Part shown: in pieces, positions 818 to 56,971 of the stretch | Layout: each line of letters starts with the position of its first letter | How positions within the stretch are numbered: position 1 is the stretch's first letter | Source: Bacteroidota bacterium | Lineage (GTDB): Bacteria > Bacteroidota > Bacteroidia > Bacteroidales > PUMT01 | Length of the DNA stretch: 64,000 nt | Assembly: GCA_003554865.1 (NCBI GenBank) | Contig: PWHJ01000221.1 | Span: forward strand, 6,594 to 70,593 | Reading direction: 5' to 3' | Position numbers and translations under genes: made by a program | The notes under the pieces: generated by a model | Told to the model about the DNA's origin: nothing | The model's input: only the letters and a program-made list of their open reading frames with translations | Database searches by the model: none

Positions 818-893
818 ATACTTTTAGTTAATTTTAAATACCACTCACCTTTAAAGTATCATACTTATATATTGCTTCACTAATGCTATAATA

Positions 894-1313: not shown

Positions 1314-1413
1314 CTCAGATTGATTTTATGTTGGACTTGTTTTTTTATTTTTTTCAATTATTTTTGTTATTGTAAATGGTTTGTTTGTGCCTTGCGCATA
1401 AATAAAATGTTTC

Positions 1414-1444
1414 AGCTGCCCGCTTCCTGCGGGCAGCTTTTTTT
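1414..1444. other. GC-rich 10-bp hairpin (AGCTGCCCGC-ttcct-GCGGGCAGCT) with a T-tract on the plus-strand side, between csgE and csgF
   Basis: Perfect inverted repeat 1414-1423/1429-1438. The T run 1438-1444 overlaps the csgE stop codon. On the coding (minus) strand the stem is followed by GAAACAUUUUAUUUAU. Confidence 0.5.
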
Positions 1445-1907: not shown

Positions 1908-1923
1908 ATTTTTTCTGTTTAAT

Positions 1924-2220
1924 TTATATGCTTGAGTGATATATCACATTTTTTTCACTTTCGGAAACCATAAAATAAAGTTCATCCGGGTTTACCAGCA
2001 TTAACTGACAGGGTTGGGAAAACTCATTATTCAATCTTTTCAGCATAGCGTAAAAGACATTAGGTTCAGTTCCAAAAATTATCACAAGGCTGATTGTTTC
2101 CAGTTTTTTTAAAACATTAATTGCTCCGTCAATATCATTTGATATATTAAAGGAGTCGTCCATTACCTCATCCTCCATCTCCACTCCGATCCCGTGTTTT
2201 CCTATCAACAGTATTTTCAT
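1924..2220 (-). CDS. Small receiver-like (pseudo-receiver) protein; first gene after the sigma-54 element
   Basis: MKILLIG...DGAINVLKKLETISLVIIFGTEPNVFYAMLKRL follows a CheY-like beta1/alpha/beta3 pattern but has no acidic pocket or acceptor Asp. The family call is tentative. Confidence 0.45.
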   Translation of the reverse strand: MKILLIGKHGIGVEMEDEVMDDSFNISNDIDGAINVLKKLETISLVIIFGTEPNVFYAMLKRLNNEFSQPCQLMLVNPDELYFMVSESEKNVIYHSSI

Positions 2221-2253
2221 TTAATTTAATTGTATTATTCTAACATAAATATA

Positions 2254-2269
2254 TGCATAATATATGCCA
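2254..2269 (-). promoter_or_regulatory. Candidate sigma-54 (-24/-12) promoter TGGCAT-ATATT-ATGCA
   Basis: The minus strand reads TGGCATATATTATGCA. GG (2268-2267) and GC (2256-2255) have exactly the spacing of consensus TGGCAC-N5-TTGCW. The -12 GC lies about 35 nt upstream of the ATG at 2220. A sigma-54 activator gene sits immediately upstream. Confidence 0.55.
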
Positions 2270-2510
2270 CTCCGAATATTTTCTTGATTATGTGAGACTT
2301 ATGACAAATTTTGCAAGTTAAAAAATGACCCATTTTTGTCCGTTTGCGGTCAAAAAAAACACAATTTATTTATAAACCTTATTGGAGGTGATTAAAAAAT
2401 GCTTAAATGATGTGACCGGATGCGGGCAGGTGGTAACTAAACGGGCACTGCCAAACGGCGCCCACAAAGTACTGACAAACAAAATGTTAATATTGAAAGA
2501 ACAGGGGAGG

Positions 2511-3887
2511 TTAGTCCTGGATTATGGAATATTTTTTTATTTTCCTGTCAAGGGCCTGTCTTGATATATCGAGTACTTTTGCGGCTCTTGTCTTATTGTA
2601 ATTGCAGCGCAATAACGCTTTTTTGATAGCAGTCTTTTCAACGCTCTGAAGGTTAAGCCCATCACCGGGAATAAACATACTGCTGTCTCTGTTAAATAAT
2701 TTAATATGCTGAGCTCTGATAGTGCTGTCATCACAAATTATTGTTGCGCGTTCAATAATATTTTTCAACTCCCTTACATTTCCGGGAAAATCATAGTTTA
2801 ACATTTTATCGTAAACATTATCTTCAATATTTTCAATATTTTTCCCGAGTTTCCTGGAAAAATAAGCAGTATAATAGTTGATCAGCTCGGGAACATCCTC
2901 CTTTCTCAGGCGCAGCGGCGGTATATTTATTGTGAATGGACTTATCCGGTAATATAGGTCAGGCCGGAATTCATTGTCGGCCACCATATTTTCCAGATTT
3001 TGATTGGTGGCTACTATAATTCTGACATCAATATTTATATGTTTTCTTTCTCCTATCTTGCTGATCATTTTGTTTTCCAGTGCCCTTAAAAATTTAGACT
3101 GCATATTTAAGGGCAACTCTGAAACCTCATCAAGAAAGAGGCTTCCATTTTGTGAAATTTCAAACCATCCCGGCGTACTTTCAACAGCTCCAGTGAAAGC
3201 TCCTTTCTTATGTCCAAAAAATTCACTTTCGAAAAGATTTTCAGGTATGGATGCGCAATTGACAGAGTGGAAAAATTGTCGGGATCTTTTGCTTAAGGCA
3301 TGAATGCTGCGTGCTATCAGCTCCTTGCCTGTTCCGCTCTCACCTGTAATAAGAACAGTCGTTGAATCAGACCCGGCAACCTTGTCCACCAGATTTATTA
3401 CTTCCTTTATTGCCGGACTTGTGCCAACTATCTCTAGTTTTGTTTTTCTGTAGAGATCGGAACATATCCTTTTATACTGCAGATCATTTTCAGTATATTT
3501 TTTTTGAAACTCAGCAAATGGCCTGATTCGTTCCAGAGTTTTCTTTAATTGCTTTAAATTAAAAGGCTTCAGCAAAAGACCATCAGCTCCGGCTAAATAG
3601 GCATCATAAAGATCTTTTGAATCACTCTCCTGATTTACAATAATCACTAAAGTCATTAATGAATTCAAAGACTTTAATTTCCTGATAAGCTCAATTGAAG
3701 CAGAATTCTCAGGCGCCATGAATAAAAAAACAATGTCAATACCTTCCTGACTTAGTATATTTACCCCCTCTGAAATGTCTAAGCTTTTATAAACATCGCA
3801 CCCGCTTTTGAGTAAATAATTATCAAGCAAGCCACCGTTTTTGAAGCTATCTCCAAGAATTAATATTTTTAATTTTTCAACCACCAT
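2511..3887 (-). CDS. Sigma-54-dependent transcriptional activator (NtrC family: receiver + AAA+ + Fis-type HTH)
   Basis: Walker A GESGTGKELIARSIH, intact GAFTGA loop (GHKKGAFTGAVES), ESEFFGH, RIIVATN, and C-terminal HTH (NKTRAAKVLDISRQAL). The N-terminal receiver has DIVFLFMAPE where DxxxxD is expected. Confidence 0.9.
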   Translation of the reverse strand: MVVEKLKILILGDSFKNGGLLDNYLLKSGCDVYKSLDISEGVNILSQEGIDIVFLFMAPENSASIELIRKLKSLNSLMTLVIIVNQESDSKDLYDAYLAGADGLLLKPFNLKQLKKTLERIRPFAEFQKKYTENDLQYKRICSDLYRKTKLEIVGTSPAIKEVINLVDKVAGSDSTTVLITGESGTGKELIARSIHALSKRSRQFFHSVNCASIPENLFESEFFGHKKGAFTGAVESTPGWFEISQNGSLFLDEVSELPLNMQSKFLRALENKMISKIGERKHINIDVRIIVATNQNLENMVADNEFRPDLYYRISPFTINIPPLRLRKEDVPELINYYTAYFSRKLGKNIENIEDNVYDKMLNYDFPGNVRELKNIIERATIICDDSTIRAQHIKLFNRDSSMFIPGDGLNLQSVEKTAIKKALLRCNYNKTRAAKVLDISRQALDRKIKKYSIIQD

Positions 3888-25673: not shown

Positions 25674-26102
25674 ATGTCTTCACAGGCATCAATTAAGCAC
25701 AAAGGGACAGTCAGGGAAGTGTCGGGTTCCCAGGTCAGGGTCAAAATAGACCCTAAGACTGCCTGCGGTTCATGCCAGGCAAAGTCCTCATGTTCCCTTG
25801 CTGAAATGGAGGAGAAAATAATTGATGTAAAAGAGACGAAAGAGAAATTTTCAGTCGGTGAGGAAGTGGAAGTAACTCTCAGTCAGACTCTGGGTTTTAA
25901 AGCTCTTTTTTACGGTTATATTTTGCCCTTTATTGTGGTAGTTACAGTGCTTATAACACTGATTGCAGTAACAGGCAATGAAGCTCTTTCGGGAATAACT
26001 GCCCTGCTGTTTCTTGTGCCGTATTACGCAACTTTACATTTTTTCCGTGACAAATTGAAAAAAGAATTTTCATTTACTATAAATAAACCGGTAAATAATT
26101 AA
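25674..26102 (+). CDS. RseC/MucC-family (SoxR-reducing-system) membrane protein
   Basis: N-terminal CGSCQAKSSC motif after a beta-rich segment, two C-terminal TM helices. Position directly before rnfB is typical. Confidence 0.7.
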   Translation: MSSQASIKHKGTVREVSGSQVRVKIDPKTACGSCQAKSSCSLAEMEEKIIDVKETKEKFSVGEEVEVTLSQTLGFKALFYGYILPFIVVVTVLITLIAVTGNEALSGITALLFLVPYYATLHFFRDKLKKEFSFTINKPVNN

Positions 26103-26105
26103 GCA

Positions 26106-26972
26106 ATGAGCGATGTTGTTGTATATTCTATTGTTTCTCTAAGTGTGTTAGGTACACTTGCAGCCATAATCCTCTACATAATCGCCCAAAAATTCAAGGT
26201 TTATGAGGATCCCCGCATAGATAAAGTCCAGGAAGCCCTTCCGGGGGCAAATTGTGGCGGTTGCGGAATGCCGGGCTGCAGGCCTTTTGCCGAAGAGCTT
26301 GTAAAAGCAGACGATATATCCGAGCTGAACTGCCCTGTTGCTGATAATGAAGCTATGGGGGAAATTGCAAAGATACTGGGGAAGGAGCTAGGAGAAAAAA
26401 CACCTTTGGTTGCCGTAGTAAAGTGCAACGGGAGTCCGGAACACAGACCAAAAACCAGTCATTACGAAGGGGCTTCCGAATGCCGCATTGCAACCGAGCT
26501 TTACAGGGGAGAATCAGACTGTCCGTATGGCTGTCTCGGACTTGGAGAGTGTGAGAGAGCATGCAAATTCGACGCGATCCATATTAACAAAGAAACGGGA
26601 CTGCCGGTTGTGACAGATGAAAAATGCACTGCCTGCAATGCTTGTGTTGTTGCATGCCCGAGGGATATCATAGAACTGCGCAAAAAGAACAAAAAAGACC
26701 GCAAAGTATATGTTTCATGCATTAATGAAGATAAAGGCGGAATAGCCCGCAAAAGTTGCAAGGTGGCATGTATAGGGTGCGGAAAATGTGTTGAGGTATG
26801 CCAGTTCGATGCTATCACCCTTGAAAACAACCTTGCATATATCGATTCTTACAAATGCACGCTGTGCCGGAAATGCCCTCCGGTATGTCCGACAAACGCT
26901 ATATTGGAAGAAAACTTCCCGCCGCGTAAGGAAAAGAAGAAGGCCGGAGATTCAGCGGCAAACAAGAGCTGA
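26106..26972 (+). CDS. rnfB: Rnf complex subunit B (polyferredoxin)
   Basis: N-terminal TM helix, CGGCGMPGCRPFAEELV, and several CxxCxxCxxxCP clusters (CTACNACVVACP, CIGCGKCVEVCQ, CTLCRKCPPVCP). Confidence 0.9.
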   Translation: MSDVVVYSIVSLSVLGTLAAIILYIIAQKFKVYEDPRIDKVQEALPGANCGGCGMPGCRPFAEELVKADDISELNCPVADNEAMGEIAKILGKELGEKTPLVAVVKCNGSPEHRPKTSHYEGASECRIATELYRGESDCPYGCLGLGECERACKFDAIHINKETGLPVVTDEKCTACNACVVACPRDIIELRKKNKKDRKVYVSCINEDKGGIARKSCKVACIGCGKCVEVCQFDAITLENNLAYIDSYKCTLCRKCPPVCPTNAILEENFPPRKEKKKAGDSAANKS

Positions 26973-27023
26973 CAATGAAGAAAAAATTAAACTTTCTGAA
27001 AAACAAAAAGTAGGAGGTTAAAA

Positions 27024-28355
27024 GTGTTAAAAACATTTCCAAAAGGAGGCGTTCACCCGGCGGAGAACAAAGTTACCGCCAGCAAGCCTATAGAGACTCT
27101 TCCCGTGCCCAAGACCGTTAGCATTCCTGTTGCTCAACATCTTGGTGCACCTTCAACTCCCGAGGTAAAAAAAGGAGATACGGTAAAAGCCGGTCAGCTT
27201 ATAGCCAAAAGCAGCGCTTTTGTATCGACCAACATACATTCATCGGTCTCTGGGAAAGTGCTGAAGGTAGATAAAGTAACCGATACTTCCGGCTACAGGC
27301 AAACCGCAGTTGTAATCCAGGTTGAAGGTGATGAATGGGACGAAAGCATAGACACCGGGAAGGAACTTAAAAAAGATACAGGTCTTACCGGGGAAGAGAT
27401 AAGAAACAAAACCCTTGAAGCAGGAATTGTGGGACTTGGCGGAGCCACGTTCCCCTCCCACATCAAATTGTCCGTTCCCAAAGGCAAAAAGGCGGAAGTT
27501 CTAATAATAAACGGCGCTGAATGCGAGCCATATCTGACGGCTGACCACCGGCTTATGCTTGAAAAAGGAGAAGAGCTGATGGTGGGAATCAGGCTGCTTA
27601 TGAAAGCTCTAGATGTGGAAAAGGCGATGATAGGCATAGAAAATAACAAGCCTGATGCCATTGAACATCTCTCCTCTCTCGCCGGTAAATACAAAGGTGT
27701 TTCTGTGCACCCCCTGAAGGTGATGTACCCGCAGGGCGCCGAAAAACAACTTATAAAAGCATTGATAAACAGGGAAGTGCCTTCCGGCGGACTGCCAATC
27801 GATGTCGGCACCGTTGTGCATAACGTGGGAACGGCCGTAGCTGTCTACGAAGCGGTACAAAAAAACAAGCCCCTCATTGAACGGGTTGTTACCGTTAGCG
27901 GCGAATCATTGAAAAATCCGGGCAATTTTATGGTGCGTATAGGTACTCCTGTCTCAGAGCTTATTGAGGCGGCAGGCGGACTGCCCGATGACACAGGCAA
28001 GATTATAAGCGGCGGCCCCATGATGGGAAAAGCGCTCAATTCACTTGAAGTACCTATAGCAAAAGGTACATCGGGCATACTTGTCTTTCCCGAAAACAAG
28101 GCAAAAAGGGACAAACCGCAAAATTGTATTCGCTGTGCGAAGTGTGTCAGCATTTGCCCGATGGGACTCGAGCCTTACCTTCTAAGATCAGCAAGCGAGA
28201 GGGAAATGTGGGAAATGGTTGAGAACGAGAGGGTGATGGACTGTATGGAGTGCGGCTCATGCAGCTATATATGTCCTTCCCGCCTACCCCTGCTTGATTA
28301 CATCCGGCTTGGAAAATCAACCGTAAGTAAAATCATCAGATCAAGAAAACAATAA
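27024..28355 (+). CDS. rnfC: Rnf complex subunit C
   Basis: GTG start. GLGGATFP, SGGPMMG, CIRCAKCVSICP and CMECGSCSYICP. Confidence 0.9.
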   Translation: MLKTFPKGGVHPAENKVTASKPIETLPVPKTVSIPVAQHLGAPSTPEVKKGDTVKAGQLIAKSSAFVSTNIHSSVSGKVLKVDKVTDTSGYRQTAVVIQVEGDEWDESIDTGKELKKDTGLTGEEIRNKTLEAGIVGLGGATFPSHIKLSVPKGKKAEVLIINGAECEPYLTADHRLMLEKGEELMVGIRLLMKALDVEKAMIGIENNKPDAIEHLSSLAGKYKGVSVHPLKVMYPQGAEKQLIKALINREVPSGGLPIDVGTVVHNVGTAVAVYEAVQKNKPLIERVVTVSGESLKNPGNFMVRIGTPVSELIEAAGGLPDDTGKIISGGPMMGKALNSLEVPIAKGTSGILVFPENKAKRDKPQNCIRCAKCVSICPMGLEPYLLRSASEREMWEMVENERVMDCMECGSCSYICPSRLPLLDYIRLGKSTVSKIIRSRKQ

Positions 28356-28358
28356 ATA

Positions 28359-29360
28359 ATGAGCAAACTACTAACAGTATCTCCGTCACCCCACACATTC
28401 GGAGGTGACAATGTAAAAAAGCTAATGTACGGGGTGATCCTTGCACTCCTCCCTGCCCTGGCAGTATCGGTTTATTTTTTCGGAATCGGAGCACTTGTAG
28501 TAACTGCCGTATCTATCATCTCGTGTATAGGGTTCGAATACCTTATACAGAAATTCCTGATGAAAACCGAACCAACAATATCCGATGGATCCGCGGCGGT
28601 AACCGGACTGCTTCTGGCCTTTAACCTGCCGTCCAACCTGCCTGTGTGGATTATTATTATAGGTGCACTTGTATCTATTGGTGTCGGGAAGATGTCGTTC
28701 GGGGGACTCGGCAATAACCCTTTCAATCCTGCACTCGTGGGAAGGGTTTTTATGCTTATTTCATTTCCGGTTCAAATGACAAGCTGGCCTGAGCCGGTAG
28801 CAGCAAGAACACAGTATACCGACGCGGTTACCGGAGCAACCCCGCTTGATGTAATGAAAGAAGGAATCGCTGACGGAGTACCCGTTTCGCAACTTATGGG
28901 TGAAGTTCCGGGTTATCTCGATCTTTTCATTGGACGAATGGGCGGTTGTATTGGTGAGATTTCTGCTGCAGCTCTAATACTGGGGGGAATTTACCTGCTT
29001 GTACGCAAAATAATTTCATGGCATATTCCCGTTTCAATTATTGCCACAATAGCAGTGTTTACCGGCATATTGTGGGGCGCTAACCCAGAAGCGAACGCCG
29101 ATCCTGTATTCCATATTCTTACAGGAGGAATTTTGCTTGGTGCTATTTTCATGGCAACCGACTATGCTACCTCCCCAATGACCGCAAAAGGGATGTGGAT
29201 ATACGGAGTCGGAATAGGCATTATTACAGTAACTATAAGGGTATGGGGTGCCTACCCCGAGGGAATGTCCTTTGCTATACTGATAATGAATGCGTTTGTG
29301 CCTGTTATTAACAAGTATGTCAAACCAAAGAGATTTGGAGAGGAGATAAAAAATGGCTAA
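28359..29360 (+). CDS. rnfD: Rnf complex subunit D
   Basis: NqrB/RnfD-type polytopic membrane protein, FMN attachment context DAVTGATPLD, FMATDYATSP. Confidence 0.9.
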   Translation: MSKLLTVSPSPHTFGGDNVKKLMYGVILALLPALAVSVYFFGIGALVVTAVSIISCIGFEYLIQKFLMKTEPTISDGSAAVTGLLLAFNLPSNLPVWIIIIGALVSIGVGKMSFGGLGNNPFNPALVGRVFMLISFPVQMTSWPEPVAARTQYTDAVTGATPLDVMKEGIADGVPVSQLMGEVPGYLDLFIGRMGGCIGEISAAALILGGIYLLVRKIISWHIPVSIIATIAVFTGILWGANPEANADPVFHILTGGILLGAIFMATDYATSPMTAKGMWIYGVGIGIITVTIRVWGAYPEGMSFAILIMNAFVPVINKYVKPKRFGEEIKNG

Positions 29361-29934
29361 GAAAGAATCAAACTTCAAAAACATGGTGCTCACACTTTTT
29401 ATTGTGACCCTTGTTGCATCCACCTCACTTGCAGTTGTTTATGAGGTGACAAAAGAGCCGATAAGACTCGCGGCAATCGAGAGAAAAAACAATGCAATCA
29501 GAGAGGTGGTGCCTGATTTCGACAACCAGCCCAATGAGGAAGAGTATACCGTAGAGGTAAACGGTGAGGAGCTAGTTTTTTATCCTGCAAAGATGGGCGA
29601 CGAGCTGGTGGGAGTTGCAATTGAAACATTCACCCGCCAAGGTTACAGCGGAACAATAGAGCTGATGGTGGGGCTGCTGCCCGACGGCACAATCCACGGA
29701 ATTGAAGTACTAAGGCATGCGGAGACACCCGGACTGGGTGACAAGATAGAAACCGACAAATCGGATTTTTACAAGCAGTTTGTGGGACGAAACCCGGCCG
29801 ACTTCAATATGAAGGTCAGACAAGACAACGGTGATATTGACGCGATAACAGCTTCTACAATCACTTCAAGAGCTTACTGCGAAGCGGTACAGTTAGCATA
29901 CGATGTTTTCATTGAAAAAAAAGATAAAAAATGA
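29353..29934 (+). CDS. rnfG: Rnf complex subunit G
   Basis: Single TM helix plus FMN-binding domain with DAITASTITSRA. Overlaps rnfD by 8 nt and rnfE by 4 nt. Confidence 0.9.
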   Translation: MAKKESNFKNMVLTLFIVTLVASTSLAVVYEVTKEPIRLAAIERKNNAIREVVPDFDNQPNEEEYTVEVNGEELVFYPAKMGDELVGVAIETFTRQGYSGTIELMVGLLPDGTIHGIEVLRHAETPGLGDKIETDKSDFYKQFVGRNPADFNMKVRQDNGDIDAITASTITSRAYCEAVQLAYDVFIEKKDKK

Positions 29935-30512
29935 ACCAGGCAAGAAACTTCACAAAAGGATTCGTACGCGATAACCCTGTGTTTACAATGATGCTGGGAT
30001 TATGTCCCGCCCTCGGCACCACCACTTCCGCCTTTAACGGTTTTGGTATGGGTATGGCAACACTTTTCGTCGTACTAATGTCAAATATAGTTGTAGCAAT
30101 CTTCAAGGATTTTATTCCCAACAAAGTGCGTATTCCTTCATATATAGTAATAATCGCATCCTTTGTTACCATAACAGACCTAGTGATGGAGGCTTTTATG
30201 GGAGCGCTGCATGCCGAACTGGGGCTTTTCATTCCCCTCATTGTTGTTAACTGCTTTGTTCTGGGACGCGCAGAAGCCTTTGCCTCCAAAAACACTCTGT
30301 TTTCTTCGATAGTAGATGGTATCGGGATGGGGCTCGCCTTTACAATGGCCCTTACAATGCTGGGAGCAGCAAGGGAGCTGCTGGGAGCAAATGCCTTATT
30401 TGGAGTGGAACTGGTTGAAGGTGACGGAATGCTTGTTTTTGTTCTTGCACCCGGCGCATTTATTGCTCTTGGATATCTGATCGCATTAATGAACAAATTG
30501 AAAAAAGATTAA
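29931..30512 (+). CDS. rnfE: Rnf complex subunit E
   Basis: NqrD/RnfE-type six-TM protein (NPVFTMMLGLCPALGTTT). Confidence 0.9.
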   Translation: MNQARNFTKGFVRDNPVFTMMLGLCPALGTTTSAFNGFGMGMATLFVVLMSNIVVAIFKDFIPNKVRIPSYIVIIASFVTITDLVMEAFMGALHAELGLFIPLIVVNCFVLGRAEAFASKNTLFSSIVDGIGMGLAFTMALTMLGAARELLGANALFGVELVEGDGMLVFVLAPGAFIALGYLIALMNKLKKD

Positions 30513-30524
30513 TTATAAAAGACT

Positions 30525-31097
30525 ATGGAATACATTGTTATAATTATAGGAGCCGTACTTGTCAACAATATTGTACTTGCCCAGTTCCTGGGACTTTGTC
30601 CGCTGTTCGGTGTTTCAAGCAAGATATCTACAGCAGCCGGTATGGGCGGAGCCGTGCTGTTCGTTATGACAGTTGCATCGATAGTAACTTACCTTCTTTC
30701 CACATTCCTGCTTGAGCCTTTTAACATCATGTACCTGCAGACCATTACATATATCCTGGTAATATCATCGCTTGTGCAAATGGTGGAGATAGTACTAAAA
30801 AAGGTTAGTCCCCCATTGTACCAGGCACTCGGGATTTTCCTGCCGCTTATGACAACCAACTGTGCCATCCTGGGAGTTGCAATACTGGTGTTTCAACAGG
30901 ATCTTACACTGCTGCAGGGTGTGGTTTTTGCAATATCACACTCTATAGGTTTTACACTGGCAATCGTTCTTCTGGCAGGCATCCGCGAACATATGGATTT
31001 GGTGAATATACCTAAAGGAATGAAAGGTAACCCTATTATTATGGTGACGGCCGGTCTGCTTGCACTTGCTTTTATGGGTTTTGCAGGGATAGTTTAA
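30525..31097 (+). CDS. rnfA: Rnf complex subunit A
   Basis: NqrE/RnfA-type six-TM protein (NNIVLAQFLGLCPLFGVS). Confidence 0.9.
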   Translation: MEYIVIIIGAVLVNNIVLAQFLGLCPLFGVSSKISTAAGMGGAVLFVMTVASIVTYLLSTFLLEPFNIMYLQTITYILVISSLVQMVEIVLKKVSPPLYQALGIFLPLMTTNCAILGVAILVFQQDLTLLQGVVFAISHSIGFTLAIVLLAGIREHMDLVNIPKGMKGNPIIMVTAGLLALAFMGFAGIV

Positions 31098-47907: not shown

Positions 47908-48870
47908 TCACTGTTTGTTAAAATCCGGGCGCGGGAGCAAGCCGGCCTCCTCGGCAATACCCGGTACACTTTTTTCACCTCCGATAGCCATCAGGTGTAC
48001 CCCATGGACACCTTCCATCTTTTTCAACTCAGCTATTTGCTCAAGTGCAATCTGTCTTCCTTCCGCCTTTTGATCTTCAGCCTCTTCCATCCTTTTTACT
48101 ATATCTTCGGTGAAAGATATCCCCGAGACGTTATCCTTCATATATTTTGCCATTTTTGCAGATTTCAGGGGGGTCACTCCGGCCAGGATATAAACTTTTT
48201 TATGAAGTCCCCTTTCCCTTACCTCCTCCATCCACCGGCTGAACCTCTCCATATTATATATAACCTGAGTCTGGATAAAATCGGCCCCTGCATTAATTTT
48301 CTTTTCCAGTCGCATAACCCTGAAATCCAGAGGTTCTGCAAAAGGATTCGCCGCGGCACCGATGAATATTTTAGGCTCCACGACAGGGCCTTTTTTGCCG
48401 TTCCTTATCATGTCACCGCATTCAAATTGCTGCTGCTCCCTCATTTTATAAAGCATATTGATAAGCTGCACCGAATCAATGTCAAAAACATTTTTAGCGG
48501 CAGGGTGATTGCCAAACGACTGATGGTCTCCGGAAAGGCATAATATATTCTTTATGCCGAGGGCAGCGGCACCCAGCACATCACTCTGGATAGCAAGCCT
48601 GTTCCTGTCGCGTGTGGTAATCTGCACAACCGGCTCAAGTCCCTGTTCAAGACAAATAACTCCCGAAGCTATAGAAGAGAGGCGTGCAATGGCAGTTTGA
48701 TTATCGGTAATATTTGCTGCATCAACATATCCTTTCAGGTAGTTTGCCTTTTCTAAAATATTATTCCTGTCAGCGCTTTTTGGAGGGCCCAGCTCACCTG
48801 TCAAAGCAAACTCCCCCGATTGCAAAACCTGTTCAAGATTACTGTTTGAGCTAGTCTTGTTTTTGTCCAT
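47908..48870 (-). CDS. metF: Methylenetetrahydrofolate reductase, short anaerobe-type MetF
   Basis: TIM-barrel MTHFR-like blocks (FALTGELGPPK, ANITDNQTAIARLSS, QITTRDRN, CLSGDH). Last gene of the hdr-mvhD-metV-metF string. Confidence 0.8.
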   Translation of the reverse strand: MDKNKTSSNSNLEQVLQSGEFALTGELGPPKSADRNNILEKANYLKGYVDAANITDNQTAIARLSSIASGVICLEQGLEPVVQITTRDRNRLAIQSDVLGAAALGIKNILCLSGDHQSFGNHPAAKNVFDIDSVQLINMLYKMREQQQFECGDMIRNGKKGPVVEPKIFIGAAANPFAEPLDFRVMRLEKKINAGADFIQTQVIYNMERFSRWMEEVRERGLHKKVYILAGVTPLKSAKMAKYMKDNVSGISFTEDIVKRMEEAEDQKAEGRQIALEQIAELKKMEGVHGVHLMAIGGEKSVPGIAEEAGLLPRPDFNKQ

Positions 48871-48897
48871 ATATATTTTTGTCTCTTTTAAAATTGC

Positions 48898-49593
48898 TTA
48901 ATTATTCTCCTTTTCCTCATCAAACATCATATCTTCCCTTGCAACCCTTCTGGGACCGCCGTCCCTGGCAGTCGACCAGTTTTTTGCGGGTTTATACTCC
49001 ATTAATTTATCAAGCTTGTTAAGGCGCTTGAACCGGTCGTATATCAACTGTCCGCCACATTCAGTATTTTCCGGGTCAATTTCACACATACCGTGAGAAG
49101 ACCCTCCACATGGTCCGTTCATTAAACTTTTGGCACACCTGGCAATCGGGCATATGCCTTCATATTCATCCAGCACACATTCACCGCAGCCTGCACAACG
49201 TTCGGACCACAAGCCCTGGGAAATGTTGGCCCCGAAAAATTTGGTGTTTACACCCGGTCTGACGATAACATCAGGGAAAAGCTCAACAATATACTGCACA
49301 CCAACCCCGCATCCCAATGAAAGTACCATTTCGGCCCGGTTTATTTTTTCTGTCGCATCCTCGTCAAAAAACTCCCTGTCGCATTGGCGCGTTAGTGTCA
49401 GCTCTTCAATTTCAATATTCCGGTTCTCCTGTCTGGCAGCCAATTTAAGTTGTTTCGAAAGCACACCTGCTTCATTTTCCCCGCCTGCCATACAAACGGT
49501 CATACAAGTACCGCATCCCATAACCAGGATATTATTGTAATCCTTAACAAAATCAAAAATTTGCTGAAAAGGTTTTTGTTCTGAAACAATCAT
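48898..49593 (-). CDS. metV: MetV-type protein (MTHFR C-terminal-like Zn/Fe-S domain)
   Basis: CPIARCAKSLMNGPCGG signature plus further Cys clusters (GCGTCMTVCMAGG, CAGCGECV). Lies 27 nt upstream of metF. Confidence 0.75.
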   Translation of the reverse strand: MIVSEQKPFQQIFDFVKDYNNILVMGCGTCMTVCMAGGENEAGVLSKQLKLAARQENRNIEIEELTLTRQCDREFFDEDATEKINRAEMVLSLGCGVGVQYIVELFPDVIVRPGVNTKFFGANISQGLWSERCAGCGECVLDEYEGICPIARCAKSLMNGPCGGSSHGMCEIDPENTECGGQLIYDRFKRLNKLDKLMEYKPAKNWSTARDGGPRRVAREDMMFDEEKENN

Positions 49594-49625
49594 ATATATT
49601 CCTCCTTGTATTAGCAGTTAATTTT

Positions 49626-50111
49626 TTATTTGCAGCATTGACTTTTATCCTTCTTCCCTTTTCCTTGACCTGTGTCCTGATCCGGAACCTCACCTTTATC
49701 TGTTTCTGCCTCCTTGCTACCGTCAAGCTGCTTTATCTTATCTGTAAACTCCTGTGCAGATCTAGCAAAGAGGGGGCCTTCCGATGCCGGTATATAGTAC
49801 ATTTCAAGCCTTTCGGGGTTTATTCCCACCTCCTGAAGCTTCTCTTTTGCAAGAGTGACTCTTTTCACCGCCCTTGCATTTCCTTCAAGAAAATGGCAAC
49901 TACCGATCTCACAGCCCGCCACCATCACCCCGTCAGCTTCATCCACAAAAGCCTGCAGCAACATATTTACATGTACTTTACCGGTACACGGCAACCGGAC
50001 AATGTGAATATTAGTGGGATACTGCTGCCGCATTGTTCCGGCCAGATCGGCCGCCGTGAATGCACAATAATGACAACAAAAGGCTATTATTTTAGGTTCT
50101 CTTTCTTTCAT
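49626..50111 (-). CDS. mvhD: MvhD/FlpD-like (methyl-viologen-reducing hydrogenase delta subunit family) protein
   Basis: KIIAFCCHYCAFTAADLAG...VRLPCTGKV...GCEIGSCHF are the family's conserved Cys blocks. It has a Lys/Asp-rich C-terminal tail ending CCK. Confidence 0.85.
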   Translation of the reverse strand: MKEREPKIIAFCCHYCAFTAADLAGTMRQQYPTNIHIVRLPCTGKVHVNMLLQAFVDEADGVMVAGCEIGSCHFLEGNARAVKRVTLAKEKLQEVGINPERLEMYYIPASEGPLFARSAQEFTDKIKQLDGSKEAETDKGEVPDQDTGQGKGKKDKSQCCK

Positions 50112-50164
50112 TTCTTCTAATAGTGTTTAATTCCCAAAGCATCCTTTACCCGAAACCAATCATT

Positions 50165-50184
50165 TTTGCCGGAAGACCGGCAAA
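50165..50184 (-). other. Intra-operon 8-bp hairpin TTTGCCGG-aaga-CCGGCAAA between hdrA and mvhD
   Basis: Perfect inverted repeat inside the 113-nt hdrA-mvhD gap, which is the largest gap in the operon. There is no U-tract on the coding strand. Confidence 0.4.
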
Positions 50185-50224
50185 GGGACAATTATTTGAT
50201 GCATCTTATTTAGTAAGATTTGGC

Positions 50225-53200
50225 TCATGAGTTAATTTCAATAATACTCTTTTCATTTCTTTTCAAGATATTCTTAACCAAGCTGCATTCCTGCTCATCA
50301 GTAAATGTGTGAAGTTGTATTGCACTGGCAGGGCATGCCGCTGCACAGTTTCCGCATCCCTGACACTTGGCCGCATCAACTTCTGCTTTTCCGTTTTTAT
50401 TAATAAACGGGGCATTAAACAAGCATTCTCTGATACATGTAAGACATGAGGCACACTTATCTTCATTTATCACGGAAACAACACCACCCACCTCAAGTGA
50501 GTCTTTCGAGAGGACCGTTACCGCCCTGCCCGCTGCCGCTACACCCTGCATTATGTTTTCCTCGGTATTTTTGGGAGAATGTGCCATTCCGCATATAAAT
50601 ACACCTTCATTGGCGAAATCAACCGGACGAAGTTTAATATGAGCCTCCATGAAATTGCCGTGCTCATCCAGGGGAAGTTTCATCAATTCGGCAAGATGGC
50701 CGTTCGACTCTTTAGTTGCCTCTATACCCGCACTTAGTACCAGCTGATCACATTCAAGTGTAACATAATCGTTAAGCACGGTGTCTTTAACTTTTATAGT
50801 GAGCTTGTTTTTATTTTCCTCAACTTCCGGATATTCCTCATCGGGGAAATGGATAAACTTAACACCCAGCTCCCTTGCCCTGCGGTAGAAGATCTCACGT
50901 ATGGTATATGTTCTTATATCACGGTAAAGAATATATACTTTGGAATCCGGGTCCTTTTCCTTTATACTTATTGCATTTTTAATAGCCTCACTGCAACAGA
51001 CCCGGGAACAATAATTATGCTCATCGTCACGGCTTCCCACACACTGGATCATTGCAACCGTTCCGAATTTTTCTTTTTTATCGATCTCAAATTCAAACCC
51101 CCGTTGAGTAATAACATTTTTATTTTTACCGTAAAGAAAGTTTTCAGTTTCATACTCCTTTGCACCGGTTGCAATTAATATAACCCCGTGATCAATTTCC
51201 GTTTTATTATCATCGAGAGTGGTTGTAAAATTCCCAATAGAGCCGTTAACAGACTTGATATTAGTGTTCAAGTGGATATCGATCAGCTCTTCATCATTAA
51301 CTTCACGTATCTTATTTTTCAGAAATTCCTGCCAGTCCTCTCCGTTGATCTCCTTGTTCAAATAAATCATGTTGCCGCCCAGCTCACTCTCCTTTTCAAC
51401 AAGATGAACCTTAAACCCCTGTCTTGCCAGAGAAAGCGAGGCCGTCATACCTGTTATACCTCCTCCTACAACCAGGGCATTTTTATTGACAGATATTGTT
51501 TTAAGCTGTAAAGGCTCCAGATGCATTGCTTTCCCGACACTTCCCCTTACCAGTGCTTTGGCTTTTTCCGTTGCCAGCTCCGGCTCCTTCTGGTGCACCC
51601 AGGAGCACTGTTCCCTGATATCGGTCATTTCAAAAAGATACTTGTTCAGTCCACCCTCACGCAAAGTCTCCTGAAACAGACCTTCATGAGTACGCGGAGT
51701 ACAGGATGCAACCACTACCCTGTTAAGGTTATACTCATCGATCAGCTCTTTCATCCTTTTTTGGGTATCCTGGGAGCAGTTGTATATTGTATGCTCGGCA
51801 TAAACGACACCCGGCAAATTTTTGGCATATTCGGCAACCGCTTCAACATCCACAACGGATGCTATGTTTATGCCGCAATGACAAATAAATACCCCAATGC
51901 GTGCTTCAGTATCCGCCACTTTCTTTTCCACCGGATATCTTTTTGCCGTTATTTCGGTGTTACGAACTTCTTTGAGAACTTCGCTGCTCAATGCAGCCGC
52001 CGAACTTCCCTGAGTTACAGCTTCGGGAATATCGCTCGGTCCGTTTCCGGCACCGCACAAATAAATACCCCTGCGGGTTGACATAAGCGGCTTAAGCGAC
52101 TCCTCAAGGAAAAATCCAAACCTGTTCTGCTCAATACCGAGAATTTCGCTGATCTTCCTGTTGGCCGGATTGGCAAGCAAGCCGACCGAAAGTACCACCA
52201 TGTCGAATTCCATTTCCTTATAGATGCCGTCCTCAATAAAACTAAGATTCAAACCCCTTGTCACAGGATTCTCTTTTACCGAAGAAATCTGACTGCGCAC
52301 AAACCTTACACCCGAATCATGCCTTGCCTGCTTATAAAAACTCTCAAAGCCCTTTCCGAAAGCTCTGATGTCTATATAAAAAATATAAGGTTGAACTTCA
52401 GGATCATGATCTTTGGCGATCATAGCCTCTTTAAGAGCATACATGCAACATACTGAAGAACAGTAGTCACTGCCCGTGGGGGTAACATCTCTCGATCCCA
52501 CACATTGGATCCAGGCAATCTTTTTAGGCGGCTTGGCGTCAGACGGGCGCGTTACATGGCCCTCATACGGTCCGGAAGCACTCAGAATCCGCTCAAACTG
52601 TATACTGGTTACAACATTGGGATATATGCCAAAGCCGTATTCCGGCTTCCTCTTTGCATCATAGGGAACGAATCCTCCTGTGGATATTACAGTTCCCACA
52701 TTGATCTGCAATGTCTCATCCTGCTGATTGTGTAAAACACCTTCGGCCTTGCATATGCGAACACATTCCATACATTCGGCACAGCTTGCACATTGGAGGC
52801 ATCTTTTAGCTTCATTTACAGCTTGCTCTTCTGTAAATGTACTTTCAATCTCATCAAAATTACCGCTTCTGCTTCCGGCTTCTGCTATAGAAGGGCTGGT
52901 ACGTTTAACCGGTTCTTTATCCACCCCTTCGGGCATCCCGGCAAAATCGCCGTCAATGTCAACCGGTTCTCTCTCTGTTTTCAGATCCTCCTTATTCAGG
53001 AAACGGTCAATGGATTCCGAAGCACGGTGCCCCATTGCTACCGACTCCACCAGTGAAGAAGGGCCGATCACCATGTCTCCTCCGGCAAACACACCCTCTT
53101 CGGAACATTCCAGGGTCAAAGGATCGGTACAAATCCATCCTTTATCGCTTTTAACAGAAGGATCAAGTCCACAGAGATCACATTCCTGTCCGGTTGCAGG

Positions 53201-54685
53201 AATCACAGTATCTGCCTCCACCACAGTTGTCTGATCAGGATCGGTCTGCAGTGAACGCTCCCCTTTGCTGTTATATACAGTCTCACATTTTTCAACTTCC
53301 AGTCCGCTAACCTTTCCATCCTCAAATACTATCTTTTTAGGGGACCATGAATTTTTTATCTCTACCCCTTCTTCAAGAGCCTCTTCGATCTCCCATGAAT
53401 GGGCAGGCATCTCCTCTTTGGTTCGGCGGTAAACAATTGTCACCTCAGAACCCATACGGATAGCCGAGCGTGCGACATCAACCGCAACGTTACCGCCACC
53501 TATAACGGCAACCTTTGAACCTGCCGAAGGTTTTTTTCCTTCACTTATTTCTCTGAGAAAAGATAGCCCATATATTACACCCTCGCCACCGGCAGTGTCA
53601 AGGGGTATCTCTTTGGCCTTTTGGGCCCCGAGCGAAACAAAAACCGCCTTGTAGCCCTGCTGTTTGAGATCCTTAATTGAAAAGTCCACCCCCAGTGTCT
53701 GTCCTTTTTTAACCTCGATACCATCATCAACCATCAATTGAATCTCATAATCGAGATAATCTTTAGGCAACCTGTAATCGGGTATACCTGTGCGCATCAT
53801 GCCCCCCAGCTTATCGCCCGCCTCAAAAAGAGTCACTTTATATCCTTTTTTCACAAGATCATGAGCACAGGTAAGACCTGCAGGGCCACCACCAATCACC
53901 GCAACTTTTTCTTCAGGGGCGGCGGAATTCTCACTTTGTAATTTATTTTCCCTTTCAGGAAGACCTCCCTCTTCGAGGAGTCTCTTTTCATAATCCGCTG
54001 CAAAACGCTTAAGGTTACGCACAGATACCGGTTGGTCAATTTCATTGCGATTGCAATTCTCCTCGCACGGATGATGGCATATCCTGCCGCAAACCCCGGC
54101 AAAAGGCATCCTTTCCCTGATAAGATCAACCGCCTCCAGGAATTTACCCTTTGCAATCAGAGCCGTATAGCCCTGCACATTGACACCTGCCGGGCAGGTG
54201 TTTTTACACGGGGCTGCAGGTGTGGATTTGTCTATGGTATAAACATTCGGGATTGCCTGGGGATATAACCGGTAAATCGCTTTGCGGTTTGAGAGCTGTC
54301 CATTAAATTCGTCTATTCTTACAACAGGGCACTCCAGCTCACACTCCCCGCAGCCGTTACATTTGTCTTCATCAACATAACGGGCCTTTTTATTTATGGT
54401 AGCTGTAAAATTCCCTGCTTCTCCCTCTATTTTATCCAGCTCTGCATAGGAGATAATCTCTATATTAAGATGGCGGCCTGTTTCCACCAGCTTGGGAGAT
54501 ATCATACACATGGCGCAATCGTTGGTGGGGAAGGTTTTATCGAGTTTCGCCATGTTACCACCGATAGCAGGCTCTTTTTCCAGCAGGTAAACTTTATACC
54601 CCATTTCAGCGCTGTCAATGGCAGCCTGCATTCCTGCAATACCGCCTCCTATAACCAATACTGAACCTGTTTGCTTATTATGCAT
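50225..54685 (-). CDS. hdrA: Giant HdrA-like flavo-iron-sulfur protein: HdrA (interrupted by an NfnB/GltD-like NAD(P)H module) fused to a second complete HdrA
   Basis: VIGGGIAGMQAA...GGNMAKLDKTFPTNDCAMC; CPAGVNVQGY...GRICHHPCEENC; VAVIGGGPAGL; VAVIGGGNVAVD; IAWIQCVGSRD; RIGVFICHCGINI...REQCSWVH; LVVGGGITGM; VAMIQCVGSRDD; terminal CASCLTCIRECL / CQGCGNCAAACP. Confidence 0.9.
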   Translation of the reverse strand: MHNKQTGSVLVIGGGIAGMQAAIDSAEMGYKVYLLEKEPAIGGNMAKLDKTFPTNDCAMCMISPKLVETGRHLNIEIISYAELDKIEGEAGNFTATINKKARYVDEDKCNGCGECELECPVVRIDEFNGQLSNRKAIYRLYPQAIPNVYTIDKSTPAAPCKNTCPAGVNVQGYTALIAKGKFLEAVDLIRERMPFAGVCGRICHHPCEENCNRNEIDQPVSVRNLKRFAADYEKRLLEEGGLPERENKLQSENSAAPEEKVAVIGGGPAGLTCAHDLVKKGYKVTLFEAGDKLGGMMRTGIPDYRLPKDYLDYEIQLMVDDGIEVKKGQTLGVDFSIKDLKQQGYKAVFVSLGAQKAKEIPLDTAGGEGVIYGLSFLREISEGKKPSAGSKVAVIGGGNVAVDVARSAIRMGSEVTIVYRRTKEEMPAHSWEIEEALEEGVEIKNSWSPKKIVFEDGKVSGLEVEKCETVYNSKGERSLQTDPDQTTVVEADTVIPATGQECDLCGLDPSVKSDKGWICTDPLTLECSEEGVFAGGDMVIGPSSLVESVAMGHRASESIDRFLNKEDLKTEREPVDIDGDFAGMPEGVDKEPVKRTSPSIAEAGSRSGNFDEIESTFTEEQAVNEAKRCLQCASCAECMECVRICKAEGVLHNQQDETLQINVGTVISTGGFVPYDAKRKPEYGFGIYPNVVTSIQFERILSASGPYEGHVTRPSDAKPPKKIAWIQCVGSRDVTPTGSDYCSSVCCMYALKEAMIAKDHDPEVQPYIFYIDIRAFGKGFESFYKQARHDSGVRFVRSQISSVKENPVTRGLNLSFIEDGIYKEMEFDMVVLSVGLLANPANRKISEILGIEQNRFGFFLEESLKPLMSTRRGIYLCGAGNGPSDIPEAVTQGSSAAALSSEVLKEVRNTEITAKRYPVEKKVADTEARIGVFICHCGINIASVVDVEAVAEYAKNLPGVVYAEHTIYNCSQDTQKRMKELIDEYNLNRVVVASCTPRTHEGLFQETLREGGLNKYLFEMTDIREQCSWVHQKEPELATEKAKALVRGSVGKAMHLEPLQLKTISVNKNALVVGGGITGMTASLSLARQGFKVHLVEKESELGGNMIYLNKEINGEDWQEFLKNKIREVNDEELIDIHLNTNIKSVNGSIGNFTTTLDDNKTEIDHGVILIATGAKEYETENFLYGKNKNVITQRGFEFEIDKKEKFGTVAMIQCVGSRDDEHNYCSRVCCSEAIKNAISIKEKDPDSKVYILYRDIRTYTIREIFYRRARELGVKFIHFPDEEYPEVEENKNKLTIKVKDTVLNDYVTLECDQLVLSAGIEATKESNGHLAELMKLPLDEHGNFMEAHIKLRPVDFANEGVFICGMAHSPKNTEENIMQGVAAAGRAVTVLSKDSLEVGGVVSVINEDKCASCLTCIRECLFNAPFINKNGKAEVDAAKCQGCGNCAAACPASAIQLHTFTDEQECSLVKNILKRNEKSIIEINS

Positions 54686-54723
54686 TATAATAAAGCTCCT
54701 TTATGTTTTATCAATTATTAGTC

Positions 54724-55611
54724 TTAACTATTTTTCAATGAACGGGTTTTATAGATTGACCCCAAAGGGACAAAGTTTTTCTTAAATCCCAGATCAGCGG
54801 GACTGCAGCCAAATGCCACTCCCATCAACTGGGTAATAAAAGCCACCGGCAACGGATATTCAACTGGATACTTTTTCCGGATTGAATCTTGCTTTGTATC
54901 GAGATTGGTCTGACACATAGGACAGGATACCGCAACACAGTCCACCCCCCTTAGTCCGGCATCCTTCAACACTTTGCCCACAAGCTTTTCGGCAATTGTA
55001 TTTACGGTAACAAACAAACTCGCCCCACAGCAATCCGTTTTATATGACCAGTCTACCACCTCACCACCCAGAGCTTTTACAATTTCATCCATGCTCATGG
55101 GGTATTCCCGGGTATCGAAAGCTTTTTCTATGGGAACCCGTGTATTCAGGCATCCGTAATAACAGGCAACCTTAAGCCCGTTAAGGGGATTTTTTACATA
55201 TTTTGAAATATGATCAAGGCCCACAACATTCACGAAAAAGTCGAGTATATTCCTGACCTTGACCTGGCCCTTATAGGGAAGATCACTTTCATTGTTCAGT
55301 TTCTCCAGCAGCTTTTCATCATTATTAAGCTCATATTCCGCCCCTACCAGCCTGAAATAACAGGATGCACAAGGGACAACCAACTCCCTGATCCCTTGCT
55401 TTTCTGCCAGCGCCAGATTTTTATGGCTCAACATCAGGTTAAGATGCTGATCTACAGACTTTACAGATGTTGCCCCGCAACAGTTCCAGTCAGCTATCTC
55501 CCTGAAAGGTATCTGCAGAACACCGAAAACGGTCTTGATACTCTGCAAATAGTGAGATGAGCTGGTTTCAAGGCTACAGCCCGGATATATAGCAATTTCA
55601 TCTTTGTTCAT
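54724..55611 (-). CDS. hdrB: HdrB-like subunit (two CCG cysteine-rich domains)
   Basis: YPGCS...DWNCCGATS and YYGC...KTDCCGASL are the duplicated CCG-domain signatures. Confidence 0.85.
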   Translation of the reverse strand: MNKDEIAIYPGCSLETSSSHYLQSIKTVFGVLQIPFREIADWNCCGATSVKSVDQHLNLMLSHKNLALAEKQGIRELVVPCASCYFRLVGAEYELNNDEKLLEKLNNESDLPYKGQVKVRNILDFFVNVVGLDHISKYVKNPLNGLKVACYYGCLNTRVPIEKAFDTREYPMSMDEIVKALGGEVVDWSYKTDCCGASLFVTVNTIAEKLVGKVLKDAGLRGVDCVAVSCPMCQTNLDTKQDSIRKKYPVEYPLPVAFITQLMGVAFGCSPADLGFKKNFVPLGSIYKTRSLKNS

Positions 55612-55659
55612 AAAAATTTTTTTTCAAGAAAACAGTCTCTCCAAGAACCAACCTGTATT

Positions 55660-56184
55660 TCAGTCCTTTGGTGAAATTTGTTTTATCCAGTTGCGAAAAC
55701 CTTTTACCGCCTTTGGTGGCGTAAAATGCAGCTTGTTCTTCATCAGCATTTTAGGTCCCAACATCGCATTTTTGAAAGGTTTGCCCAGCCGCAAATTATA
55801 CTCAATCATAATCCTGAACTCATGCACCTTGCCCCTTCTTAAAATATCATCCGTAAAAGTCTTGTGGAACTTATAAATATCATTCCTTTTTGGTTTAAGT
55901 CCACGCTCCAAAGCCATTTGCTTCAGCCGGGTCATTATATTGGGGATCTCGATATCGTTGGGGCATTTTACAGCACAAGCATAACAACTTGCGCAAATCC
56001 AGGGAGTTTCAGTTTTGAATACTTTTTCCTCCATTCCAAGGGAAGTAAGATGAATAACTATATGCGGATACACATCCATCTCCTCCACCACCGGGCAACC
56101 GGCTGAACACTTTCCACACTGGTAACAAAGCGATGTCTCACTGTACAACTCTTTTTTCGTCTTCTCCAGTTCAGGTGTCTCCAT
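55660..56184 (-). CDS. hdrC: HdrC-like subunit (2x[4Fe-4S])
   Basis: CYQCGKCSAGCP and CASCYACAVKCP. 174 aa. First gene of the operon. Confidence 0.85.
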   Translation of the reverse strand: METPELEKTKKELYSETSLCYQCGKCSAGCPVVEEMDVYPHIVIHLTSLGMEEKVFKTETPWICASCYACAVKCPNDIEIPNIMTRLKQMALERGLKPKRNDIYKFHKTFTDDILRRGKVHEFRIMIEYNLRLGKPFKNAMLGPKMLMKNKLHFTPPKAVKGFRNWIKQISPKD

Positions 56185-56212
56185 AATATAATTAAAAAAT
56201 AAATTTAAACTG

Positions 56213-56220
56213 CAAAGTTA
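56213..56220 (-). promoter_or_regulatory. -7 box TAACTTTG upstream of hdrC
   Basis: The minus strand reads TAACTTTG (TAnnTTTG), 28 nt before the ATG at 56184. Confidence 0.4.
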
Positions 56221-56536: not shown

Positions 56537-56971
56537 TTAGAGCCCGGGCTTTATAGTATCATTATAGAATTTTGCAAACGCTTCCCTGATCTCATCCCTC
56601 ACCCGGGCAAACTCGTGGCGTACCTCTTCAGGGGAGCCCTCGGCCATGTAAGGGTCGTCAAAACCTAAATGAAGGCGTTTTTTGACATTGCCGCTAAAAA
56701 CAGGACATGTTTCATAAGCACTGTCGCAGACAGTTATAACATAATCCCATTGCTCATTTAAATATTTTTCTACCGGTTCGGATTTATGACCACTTATATC
56801 AATTCCGGCCTCTTTCATCACTTCCGTGGCCTTCGAGCTTACTTTACCGGATGGATGAGTTCCGGCTGAACGCACTGTAAGCCTATCGTCAAATGAACTC
56901 AAAAATCCCTCTGCCATCTGGCTGCGGCATGAATTGCCTGTACATATGATCAAGATTTTCATTTTTTGCAA
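56537..56971 (-). CDS. arsC: Arsenate reductase, LMW-PTP/thioredoxin-coupled type
   Basis: P-loop CTGNSCRS at the N-terminus plus the downstream Cys pair in VITVCDSAYETCP. Confidence 0.8.
   Translation of the reverse strand: MQKMKILIICTGNSCRSQMAEGFLSSFDDRLTVRSAGTHPSGKVSSKATEVMKEAGIDISGHKSEPVEKYLNEQWDYVITVCDSAYETCPVFSGNVKKRLHLGFDDPYMAEGSPEEVRHEFARVRDEIREAFAKFYNDTIKPGL

Follow-up and report, generated by a model that had tools for sequence, protein, structure and literature searches.

The window analysed here is a 64,000-nt stretch of contig PWHJ01000221.1 (positions 6,594 to 70,593 of the forward strand) from the Bacteroidota assembly GCA_003554865.1, and our subject is a run of six genes within it, hdrC-hdrB-hdrA-mvhD-metV-metF, whose products match the subunits of a heterodisulfide-reductase-linked methylenetetrahydrofolate reductase (MTHFR). 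The six open reading frames (ORFs) are intact and share the minus strand between 47908 and 56184: hdrC (55660-56184; 174 aa, 20.2 kDa), hdrB (54724-55611; 295 aa, 32.8 kDa), a large, 'HdrL-like' hdrA (50225-54685; 1486 aa, 163.6 kDa), mvhD (49626-50111; 161 aa, 17.8 kDa), metV (48898-49593; 231 aa, 25.9 kDa) and metF (47908-48870; 320 aa, 35.4 kDa). The gaps between them, recomputed from these coordinates, are 48, 38, 113, 32 and 27 nt, exactly as given in an earlier model-made reading of the sequence (hereafter the first-pass annotation). No terminator-like sites were found on the coding strand within these gaps, and no terminator was found past metF. Gene order, common strand, short and terminator-free gaps and a single conserved promoter box together form a pattern that fits one predicted transcription unit.

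The promoter box is a -7 element of the Bacteroidota type, TAACTTTG, at 56213-56220 on the minus strand, its 3' end lying 28 nt before the hdrC ATG (56184). The element singled out in the first-pass annotation is indeed present, but the motif by itself is not significant, since TAnnTTTG was counted 48 times in the window against 66 occurrences expected by chance. In three related loci (L010, L013 and L056), TTA[AC]CTTTG with TTTG(A) about 20 nt upstream stands in the same register before hdrC, while the remainder of the hdrC upstream spacer has diverged among them. Because this register is kept across species in diverged spacers, the Bacteroidota-type promoter ahead of hdrC is likely to be genuine. 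Sigma-70 promoters and intrinsic terminators were set aside, their counts being at or under the shuffle expectation. Riboswitch control of the operon was also rejected: searches with Rfam, run over the entire window with gathering thresholds, gave no match, and there was none upstream of hdrC at E ≤ 1, none in eight related loci and none at E ≤ 1 upstream of metH in the sister locus L088, which is described below. Comparison with an 81%-identical relative shows strong purifying selection on each of the six genes (ratio of nonsynonymous to synonymous substitution rates, dN/dS, 0.04-0.10), which argues that they are real.

The family assignments proposed on motifs by the first-pass annotation held for every subunit, with the motifs found and all family hidden Markov models passed, those of the MTHFR families included. 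MetF, the predicted flavin-binding catalytic subunit, matches PF02219 (MTHFR) at E 4e-39 and 135 bits (Pfam cut-off 24), and the profile that it fits best is PRK08645, in the MTHFR half (E 7e-66). Against TIGR00676, the model for canonical MetF, it scores 84 bits and so falls below the cut-off of 294, and with the canonical MetF proteins encoded in sister Bacteroidales loci it shares just 21% identity. By homology, it is a MetF of the MetVF-associated type and not a canonical NAD(P)H-dependent MetF. MetV, the predicted Fe-S/Zn small subunit of a MetVF-type MTHFR, has 13 cysteines and the NGPCGG motif and matches PF12225 (MTHFR_C/DUF5981) at E 1.5e-31; a structure search returned no solved structure homologous to it. 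MvhD matches PF02662 (FlpD) at E 4e-46 and would serve as a [2Fe-2S] electron-transfer adaptor. Its C-terminus bears an acidic, lysine-rich extension of about 30 residues, ending in KSQCCK, which is missing from the FlpD profile and varies among relatives. HdrB is matched twice by PF02754 (CCG) and by TIGR03288 (E 3e-48); both CCG domains (CCG at residues 44 and 194) are complete, and all ten cysteines of the two motifs are kept in the ligand pattern of non-cubane [4Fe-4S] clusters. HdrC falls into the Pfam 4Fe-4S dicluster families, with a two-cluster ferredoxin fold, and matches TIGR03290 (E 2e-17); its two CxxCxxCxxxCP motifs, CYQCGKCSAGCP and CASCYACAVKCP, would hold two [4Fe-4S] clusters.

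HdrA, whose length the first-pass annotation did not remark on, is more than twice as long as methanogen HdrA. It scores 986 bits against the HdrA models of NCBIfam, and its segments match methanogen Hdr structures at E 1e-160 to 1e-177. Two modules can be recognised. The first (residues 1-154 and 635-905) comprises a TrxR-like FAD domain and a ferredoxin half-domain, and the second (residues ~906-1486) is a complete HdrA without the inserted ferredoxin domain. Against the solved structure of M. thermolithotrophicus HdrA, residues 9-154 align with 145-291, residues 635-861 with 293-520, residues 927-1077 with the N-terminal domain (3-153) and residues 1345-1462 with 518-638. The first module is split by a GltD/NfnB-like NAD(P)H- and FAD-binding insert (residues ~155-634; 52784-54223, minus strand), which falls between the equivalents of residues 291 and 293 of HdrA in PDB 5ODC and interrupts the 'inserted ferredoxin domain'. 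The insert contains a Fer4_20 domain, matches PF14691, PF07992 and PRK12771 (546 bits), and shows Rossmann motifs at residues 265 (GGGPAG) and 396 (GGGNVA); NfnB and GltD structures match it at E 1e-63 to 1e-111. The glutamate/lysine (E/K) signature of bifurcation is present in both TrxR modules, as E698/K752, which line up with E356/K409 of 5ODC HdrA, and as E1198/K1236. A two-cluster ferredoxin domain is kept at the C-terminus.

This architecture is that of the MetFV-HdrABC-MvhD complex of Moorella thermoacetica (Moth_1191-1196), with which we compared the operon by published description rather than by sequence alignment (Mock et al. 2014, as summarised in PMC9430772 and PMC5861303). The likeness in composition and order (hdrCBA-mvhD-metVF) that the first-pass annotation had drawn extends to the large HdrA with its GltD-like NAD(P)H domain. 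The HdrA of the Moorella complex has 1487 aa, 162.8 kDa and the signatures E696/K750 and E1204/K1246 (Kremp et al., PMC9430772). Again compared by description, the two HdrA proteins differ by one residue in length and lie close in mass (163.6 against 162.8 kDa); both consist of a TrxR-like module split by a GltD domain, then MvhD-like, TrxR-like and ferredoxin modules; both miss the inserted ferredoxin domain in the second module; and both carry the E/K signature in both TrxR modules, at nearly equal positions. The predicted masses of the window subunits all lie within about 3.5 kDa of the published Moorella values. The possibility that a 1486-aa HdrA marks a departure from the Moorella type was rejected on the same grounds of length and domain content. 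From the matching layout, length, E/K sites and subunit masses, we infer that the predicted complex is a type IV (Hdr-type) MTHFR and that its subtype is that of Moorella and not that of Sporomusa. Sporomusa ovata has the same HdrCBA-MvhD-MetVF gene set and order, again with a MetVF core tied to Hdr-like proteins, but its HdrA is of 101 kDa, is without the GltD NAD(P)H domain and carries the E/K signature in only one of two TrxR modules, and unlike the window its complex belongs to a membrane-bound chain from H2 to methylene-tetrahydrofolate (methylene-THF) (PMC9430772). In contrast to Moorella, the host of the window is a Bacteroidales that does not look acetogenic, the operon does not lie beside acsE or the genes for CO dehydrogenase/acetyl-CoA synthase (CODH/ACS), and relatives of the window carry the module after metH and a canonical metF.

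Other known systems share only parts of this set. The MetF and MetV core (PF02219 and PF12225) is common to type II MetVF and type III MetVF-RnfC2 (Clostridium ljungdahlii, Thermoanaerobacter kivui, Acetobacterium woodii), which unlike the window are without Hdr or MvhD subunits and receive electrons from reduced ferredoxin in vitro (type II) or through an RnfC-like NADH subunit (type III). Canonical type I MetF (E. coli, Thermus; TIGR00676) catalyses the same reaction and belongs to the same TIM-barrel flavoprotein fold family as the window MetF, from which it differs by the profile score and the identity given above. Methanogen MvhAGD-HdrABC (PDB 5ODC, 8RVU, 7BKB) has the folds of HdrA, HdrB, HdrC and MvhD and their cluster motifs in common with the window cluster; in the latter, unlike the methanogen complex, hydrogenase subunits are missing, CoM-S-S-CoB chemistry is not expected, HdrA is duplicated and bears an NAD(P)H module, and the electron sink would be MetVF. 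HdrL of Desulfobacterium autotrophicum, also called 'heterodisulfide reductase/glutamate synthase fusion', resembles the window HdrA in its large size, its solubility, its fusion to an NADH-binding domain of the GltD kind and the mvhD gene that comes next (PMC2702500). The HdrL loci, however, contain selenocysteine and are associated with dsr among other genes, whereas the window HdrA is without selenocysteine and is tied to metVF.

The contig was placed through its other genes. Named best matches to PurL from the window are all Bacteroidales or Bacteroidota (64-76% identity), genes typical of Bacteroidota are present in the window, and the closest HdrA relatives (81-86%) come from Bacteroidales metagenome-assembled genomes (MAGs) of Kulunda soda-lake sediments, so that the affiliation to Bacteroidota given earlier stands and the contig is, by housekeeping-gene homology, Bacteroidales. 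Identical proteins were found in contigs of JGI sample 3300000557 (SL_8KL_010_SED). For the distribution of the module we scanned one genome per GTDB species, which yielded 78 loci. The order hdrC-hdrB-hdrA-mvhD-metV-metF is kept in at least 34 of these, whose MAG labels cover more than 10 lineages besides Bacteroidales. By ORF clustering, MetV stands beside the large HdrA in 46 of the 78 loci and MetF in 45; MetV and MetF, and not Qmo or Flx, are thus the consistent partners of this HdrA family, in agreement with the first-pass annotation. Qmo and Flx identities were both rejected: the 174-aa HdrC is without the membrane part of QmoC, its match to the 360-position model being confined to positions 19-99, and neither flx nor apr genes lie nearby.

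Bacteroidales or Bacteroidota labels are borne by 21 loci (19 MAGs), every one of them from a MAG. In a neighbour-joining (NJ) tree of HdrA, the Bacteroidales loci form one clade, within which the window is nested among soda-lake genomes; the groups neighbouring this clade are Fibrobacteria, PVC, Hydrogenedentes and Nitrospiraceae. A single clade with the window nested inside it suggests that the trait is old and stable in the lineage. Recent horizontal transfer was rejected, as the operon does not stand out in GC content and Bacteroidales HdrA is monophyletic in the NJ tree. In 2018, a survey of complete genomes counted only 25 that had the complex, most of them from Firmicutes and Proteobacteria (PMC6085437); the distribution seen here is much broader than that. 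A literature search on MetV or Hdr with Bacteroidota found no paper describing the cluster in this phylum. Nor is the cluster a rarity: it recurs in 19 Bacteroidales MAGs and in many other lineages.

Two variants were seen among the remaining loci. One clade with the labels Myxococcales, Binatia, Planctomycetota and Acidobacteriota (L037, L039-L042, L051, L072, L084 and L085) has hdrCBA-mvhD-metV without a downstream metF, and carries 4-8 kb upstream a divergent MetF-like gene and genes similar to the glutamate synthase large subunit (GXGXG, Glu_synthase); this metF-less clade may represent a module for a different substrate on the same Hdr chassis. Four Chloroflexota loci (L047, L048, L061 and L063) show the rearranged order hdrA-mvhD-metV-metF-hdrC-hdrB and longer HdrA match regions of about 6.4 kb.

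The gene neighbourhood differs between two groups of Bacteroidales. In 12 sister loci, whose HdrA is 68-75% identical to that of the window, the gene immediately upstream of hdrC is a canonical NAD(P)H metF (TIGR00676, 307 bits, cut-off 294), and in the 9 loci with a long enough contig metH, for the cobalamin-dependent methionine synthase (1778 bits, cut-off 1497), lies upstream of this metF. The resulting eight-gene array metH-metF-hdrCBA-mvhD-metVF occupies a single strand, with metF-hdrC gaps of 5-84 nt (L088 3819-14849; L089 1-11967; L091 3593-17131; also L014, L016, L031, L032 and L046). Two different MTHFRs thus stand side by side in these arrays, and an (R)-SAM hydrolase-like gene lies nearby. 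Upstream of metH we observed a conserved block of about 120 nt (L088 ~3450-3600, with equivalents in L091, L014, L016 and L032; alignment A1), in which a promoter, TTTG/TAAGTTTG, is combined with a 'TTATTTTGTACAGAA' box and after which comes a leader some 250 nt long; having no Rfam riboswitch match, the block may be an undescribed regulatory site. The subclade formed by the window, L010, L013 and L056 has the bare six-gene operon between variable housekeeping flanks, with no conserved functional neighbours. In another Bacteroidales MAG (L030 5663-12121), several genes downstream of metF are B12-related: they encode a cobalamin adenosyltransferase and a CobC-like phosphatase, a DUF5074 protein and a TonB-dependent receptor that resemble B12-uptake components, and a corrinoid protein of 215 aa that stands on its own.

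Genes for CODH/ACS (acsABCD, cooS), acsE, fhs, folD and methyltransferases were not found in about 80 kb surrounding the operon, as far as its genes are annotated by Pfam, and CODH/ACS, acsE, fhs and folD were not found in the 21 Bacteroidales loci. A scan of 871 soda-lake MAGs for acsB by Vavourakis et al. does not list Bacteroidetes among the carriers (PMC6146748). The neighbourhood in a Nitrospiraceae MAG (GCA_964587655; L090 1-16572) is of another kind: the six-gene unit follows acsC/D, RACo, cooC, acsE, DUF3786 and fhs, which by gene content is a classical Wood-Ljungdahl pathway (WLP) cluster and provides a catabolic context without counterpart in the Bacteroidales loci. In addition, fhs adjoins the module in six non-Bacteroidota loci. 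Within the window, a complete Rnf operon, rnfBCDGEA (ferredoxin:NAD+ oxidoreductase), lies at 26106-31097 on the plus strand, 17 kb from the MTHFR operon; an rseC/mucC-like gene precedes it, and the pair of features spans 25674-31097 on the plus strand.

Taking these observations together, we hold with moderate confidence that the six genes are a single operon for a type IV MTHFR, HdrCBA-MvhD-MetVF, which would be driven by NAD(P)H, would probably bifurcate electrons and would supply methyl-THF for methionine synthesis, and that an uncultured Bacteroidales lineage living in sediment passes this operon on stably. The mechanism is read from the domains present and by analogy with the enzymes of Moorella and of methanogens, and the role from gene context. 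NAD(P)H would be oxidised at the GltD-like module within HdrA, and the electrons would pass to the FAD of the TrxR-like modules bearing the E/K signature, with bifurcation at the HdrA flavin. One electron pair would run downhill through HdrC/HdrB and/or MvhD to MetV and on to the MetF flavin, which would reduce 5,10-methylene-THF (E0' -200 mV) to 5-methyl-THF. The other pair would reach a low-potential acceptor, probably ferredoxin or flavodoxin, through the C-terminal ferredoxin domain of HdrA, and this carrier could be re-oxidised by Rnf, whose genes lie at a distance of 17 kb. Methyl-THF would then go to methionine synthase (MetH) and the S-adenosylmethionine (SAM) methyl cycle, not to acetyl-CoA synthase. 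The placement of metH and canonical metF ahead of the module in the sister clade points to methionine synthesis, and supply of MetH is the role we prefer because of this synteny in sister species and because no WLP genes were found, rather than because of data from the organism's own genome.

Several points weigh against this assignment. In the window, L010, L013 and L056, metH and canonical metF are missing beside the operon, so the anabolic link is transferred from sister species; in those sister species, the adjacent canonical MetF could do the same job. A complex of about 295 kDa, rich in Fe-S clusters, looks extravagant for a low-flux anabolic step. The scan for one-carbon genes covered about 80 kb, and a distant CODH/ACS or methyltransferase system may lie elsewhere in the genome. 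Moreover, the Moorella enzyme did not accept ferredoxin in vitro, and menaquinone or cytochrome b has been proposed as its third electron carrier (PMC13391211). The negative result with ferredoxin makes the bifurcating step to ferredoxin hypothetical, and together with the menaquinone proposal it keeps a rival in view, namely that the same MTHFR does not bifurcate but confurcates NADH and a membrane carrier (menaquinol) onto methylene-THF as a respiratory link, as proposed for Sporomusa and Moorella. Bacteroidota make menaquinone, and the S. ovata complex is partly membrane-associated via MvhD. We nevertheless regard a menaquinol link as unlikely here: no locus has a membrane subunit in or beside the operon or a conserved transmembrane partner, and HdrA retains both E/K signatures and the C-terminal two-cluster ferredoxin domain.

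The first-pass annotation had offered a reductive or oxidative methyl branch as one implication of the complex. On that view the same enzyme would provide the MTHFR reaction in a Bacteroidales WLP, run either reductively (acetogenic or autotrophic) or oxidatively. The module is of the acetogen type, its identical six-gene counterpart sits inside the Nitrospiraceae WLP cluster, fhs stands beside it in the six non-Bacteroidota loci and Rnf is encoded in the window, all of which would suit such a role; the lack of CODH/ACS, acsE, fhs and folD in the regions scanned, the tie to metH in the sister clade and the acsB carriers of the soda-lake survey, among which Bacteroidetes do not appear, make it very unlikely. 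The reductive glycine route, also named there, falls away, as MTHFR is not part of that pathway. Operation in reverse fares little better and is in our judgement improbable. Here the complex would act as a methyl-THF oxidase for methyl groups that corrinoid methyltransferases draw from methylated compounds such as glycine betaine, methoxylated aromatics or methanol, with Hdr confurcation powering the oxidation of methyl-THF (-200 mV) with NAD+ (-320 mV). Methylated osmolytes are abundant in soda-lake sediments, and a free-standing corrinoid protein with B12 salvage and uptake genes lies just past metF in L030. The NAD+-linked oxidation is endergonic (+23 kJ/mol), and an oxidative role of type IV enzymes has been discussed for methanol-grown Moorella (PMC13391211). 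Yet B12 supply for MetH explains the L030 genes equally well, neither the surroundings of the window operon nor the other Bacteroidales loci yielded a methyltransferase or corrinoid gene, and fhs, folD and formate dehydrogenase genes were not seen nearby. A wider proposal, which we regard as speculative and doubtful, is that the Hdr-type MTHFR is not a speciality of acetogens but a widespread anaerobe module wired into the methionine/methyl cycle of Bacteroidales, either as a redox valve or energy saver or in reverse for methyl oxidation. As a valve, it would turn NADH into reduced ferredoxin for Rnf during one-carbon assimilation; in reverse, it would let sediment Bacteroidales oxidise the methyl groups of methylated osmolytes, which for this phylum would be a methylotrophic trait so far overlooked.

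Of the steps in the acetogenic pathway, type IV MTHFR is the one least well understood; the identity of its second electron partner, a question from 2014 onwards, had not been settled by 2026 (PMC13391211). What is new here is a complete and selectively maintained Moorella-type operon as a predicted stable trait of an uncultured Bacteroidales clade. The linkage to metH in sister species and the spread over MAGs with the labels of more than 10 other lineages broaden the ecological range of the enzyme, and anabolic one-carbon metabolism can be argued as a further use of it. As a caution for annotation, hdr-metVF clusters in MAGs are unsafe as markers of acetogenesis or of the WLP. Since the hosts appear to lack the WLP, they may offer a clean background in which to find the third electron carrier of type IV MTHFR.

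Two further features of the window were recorded. A low-molecular-weight phosphatase/ArsC-like gene lies at 56537-56971 on the minus strand, 352 nt upstream of hdrC and on the same strand; as it is not kept beside the operon in related species, it is probably unrelated to it. A gene set for curli-type secretion and assembly (csgE, csgF, csgG, a gene for a curlin-repeat protein and a CsgC-like gene) was noted on this Bacteroidales contig at positions 1-3887 of the window and at L094 5818-13366, and it is adjoined by a gene for a sigma-54 response-regulator activator.

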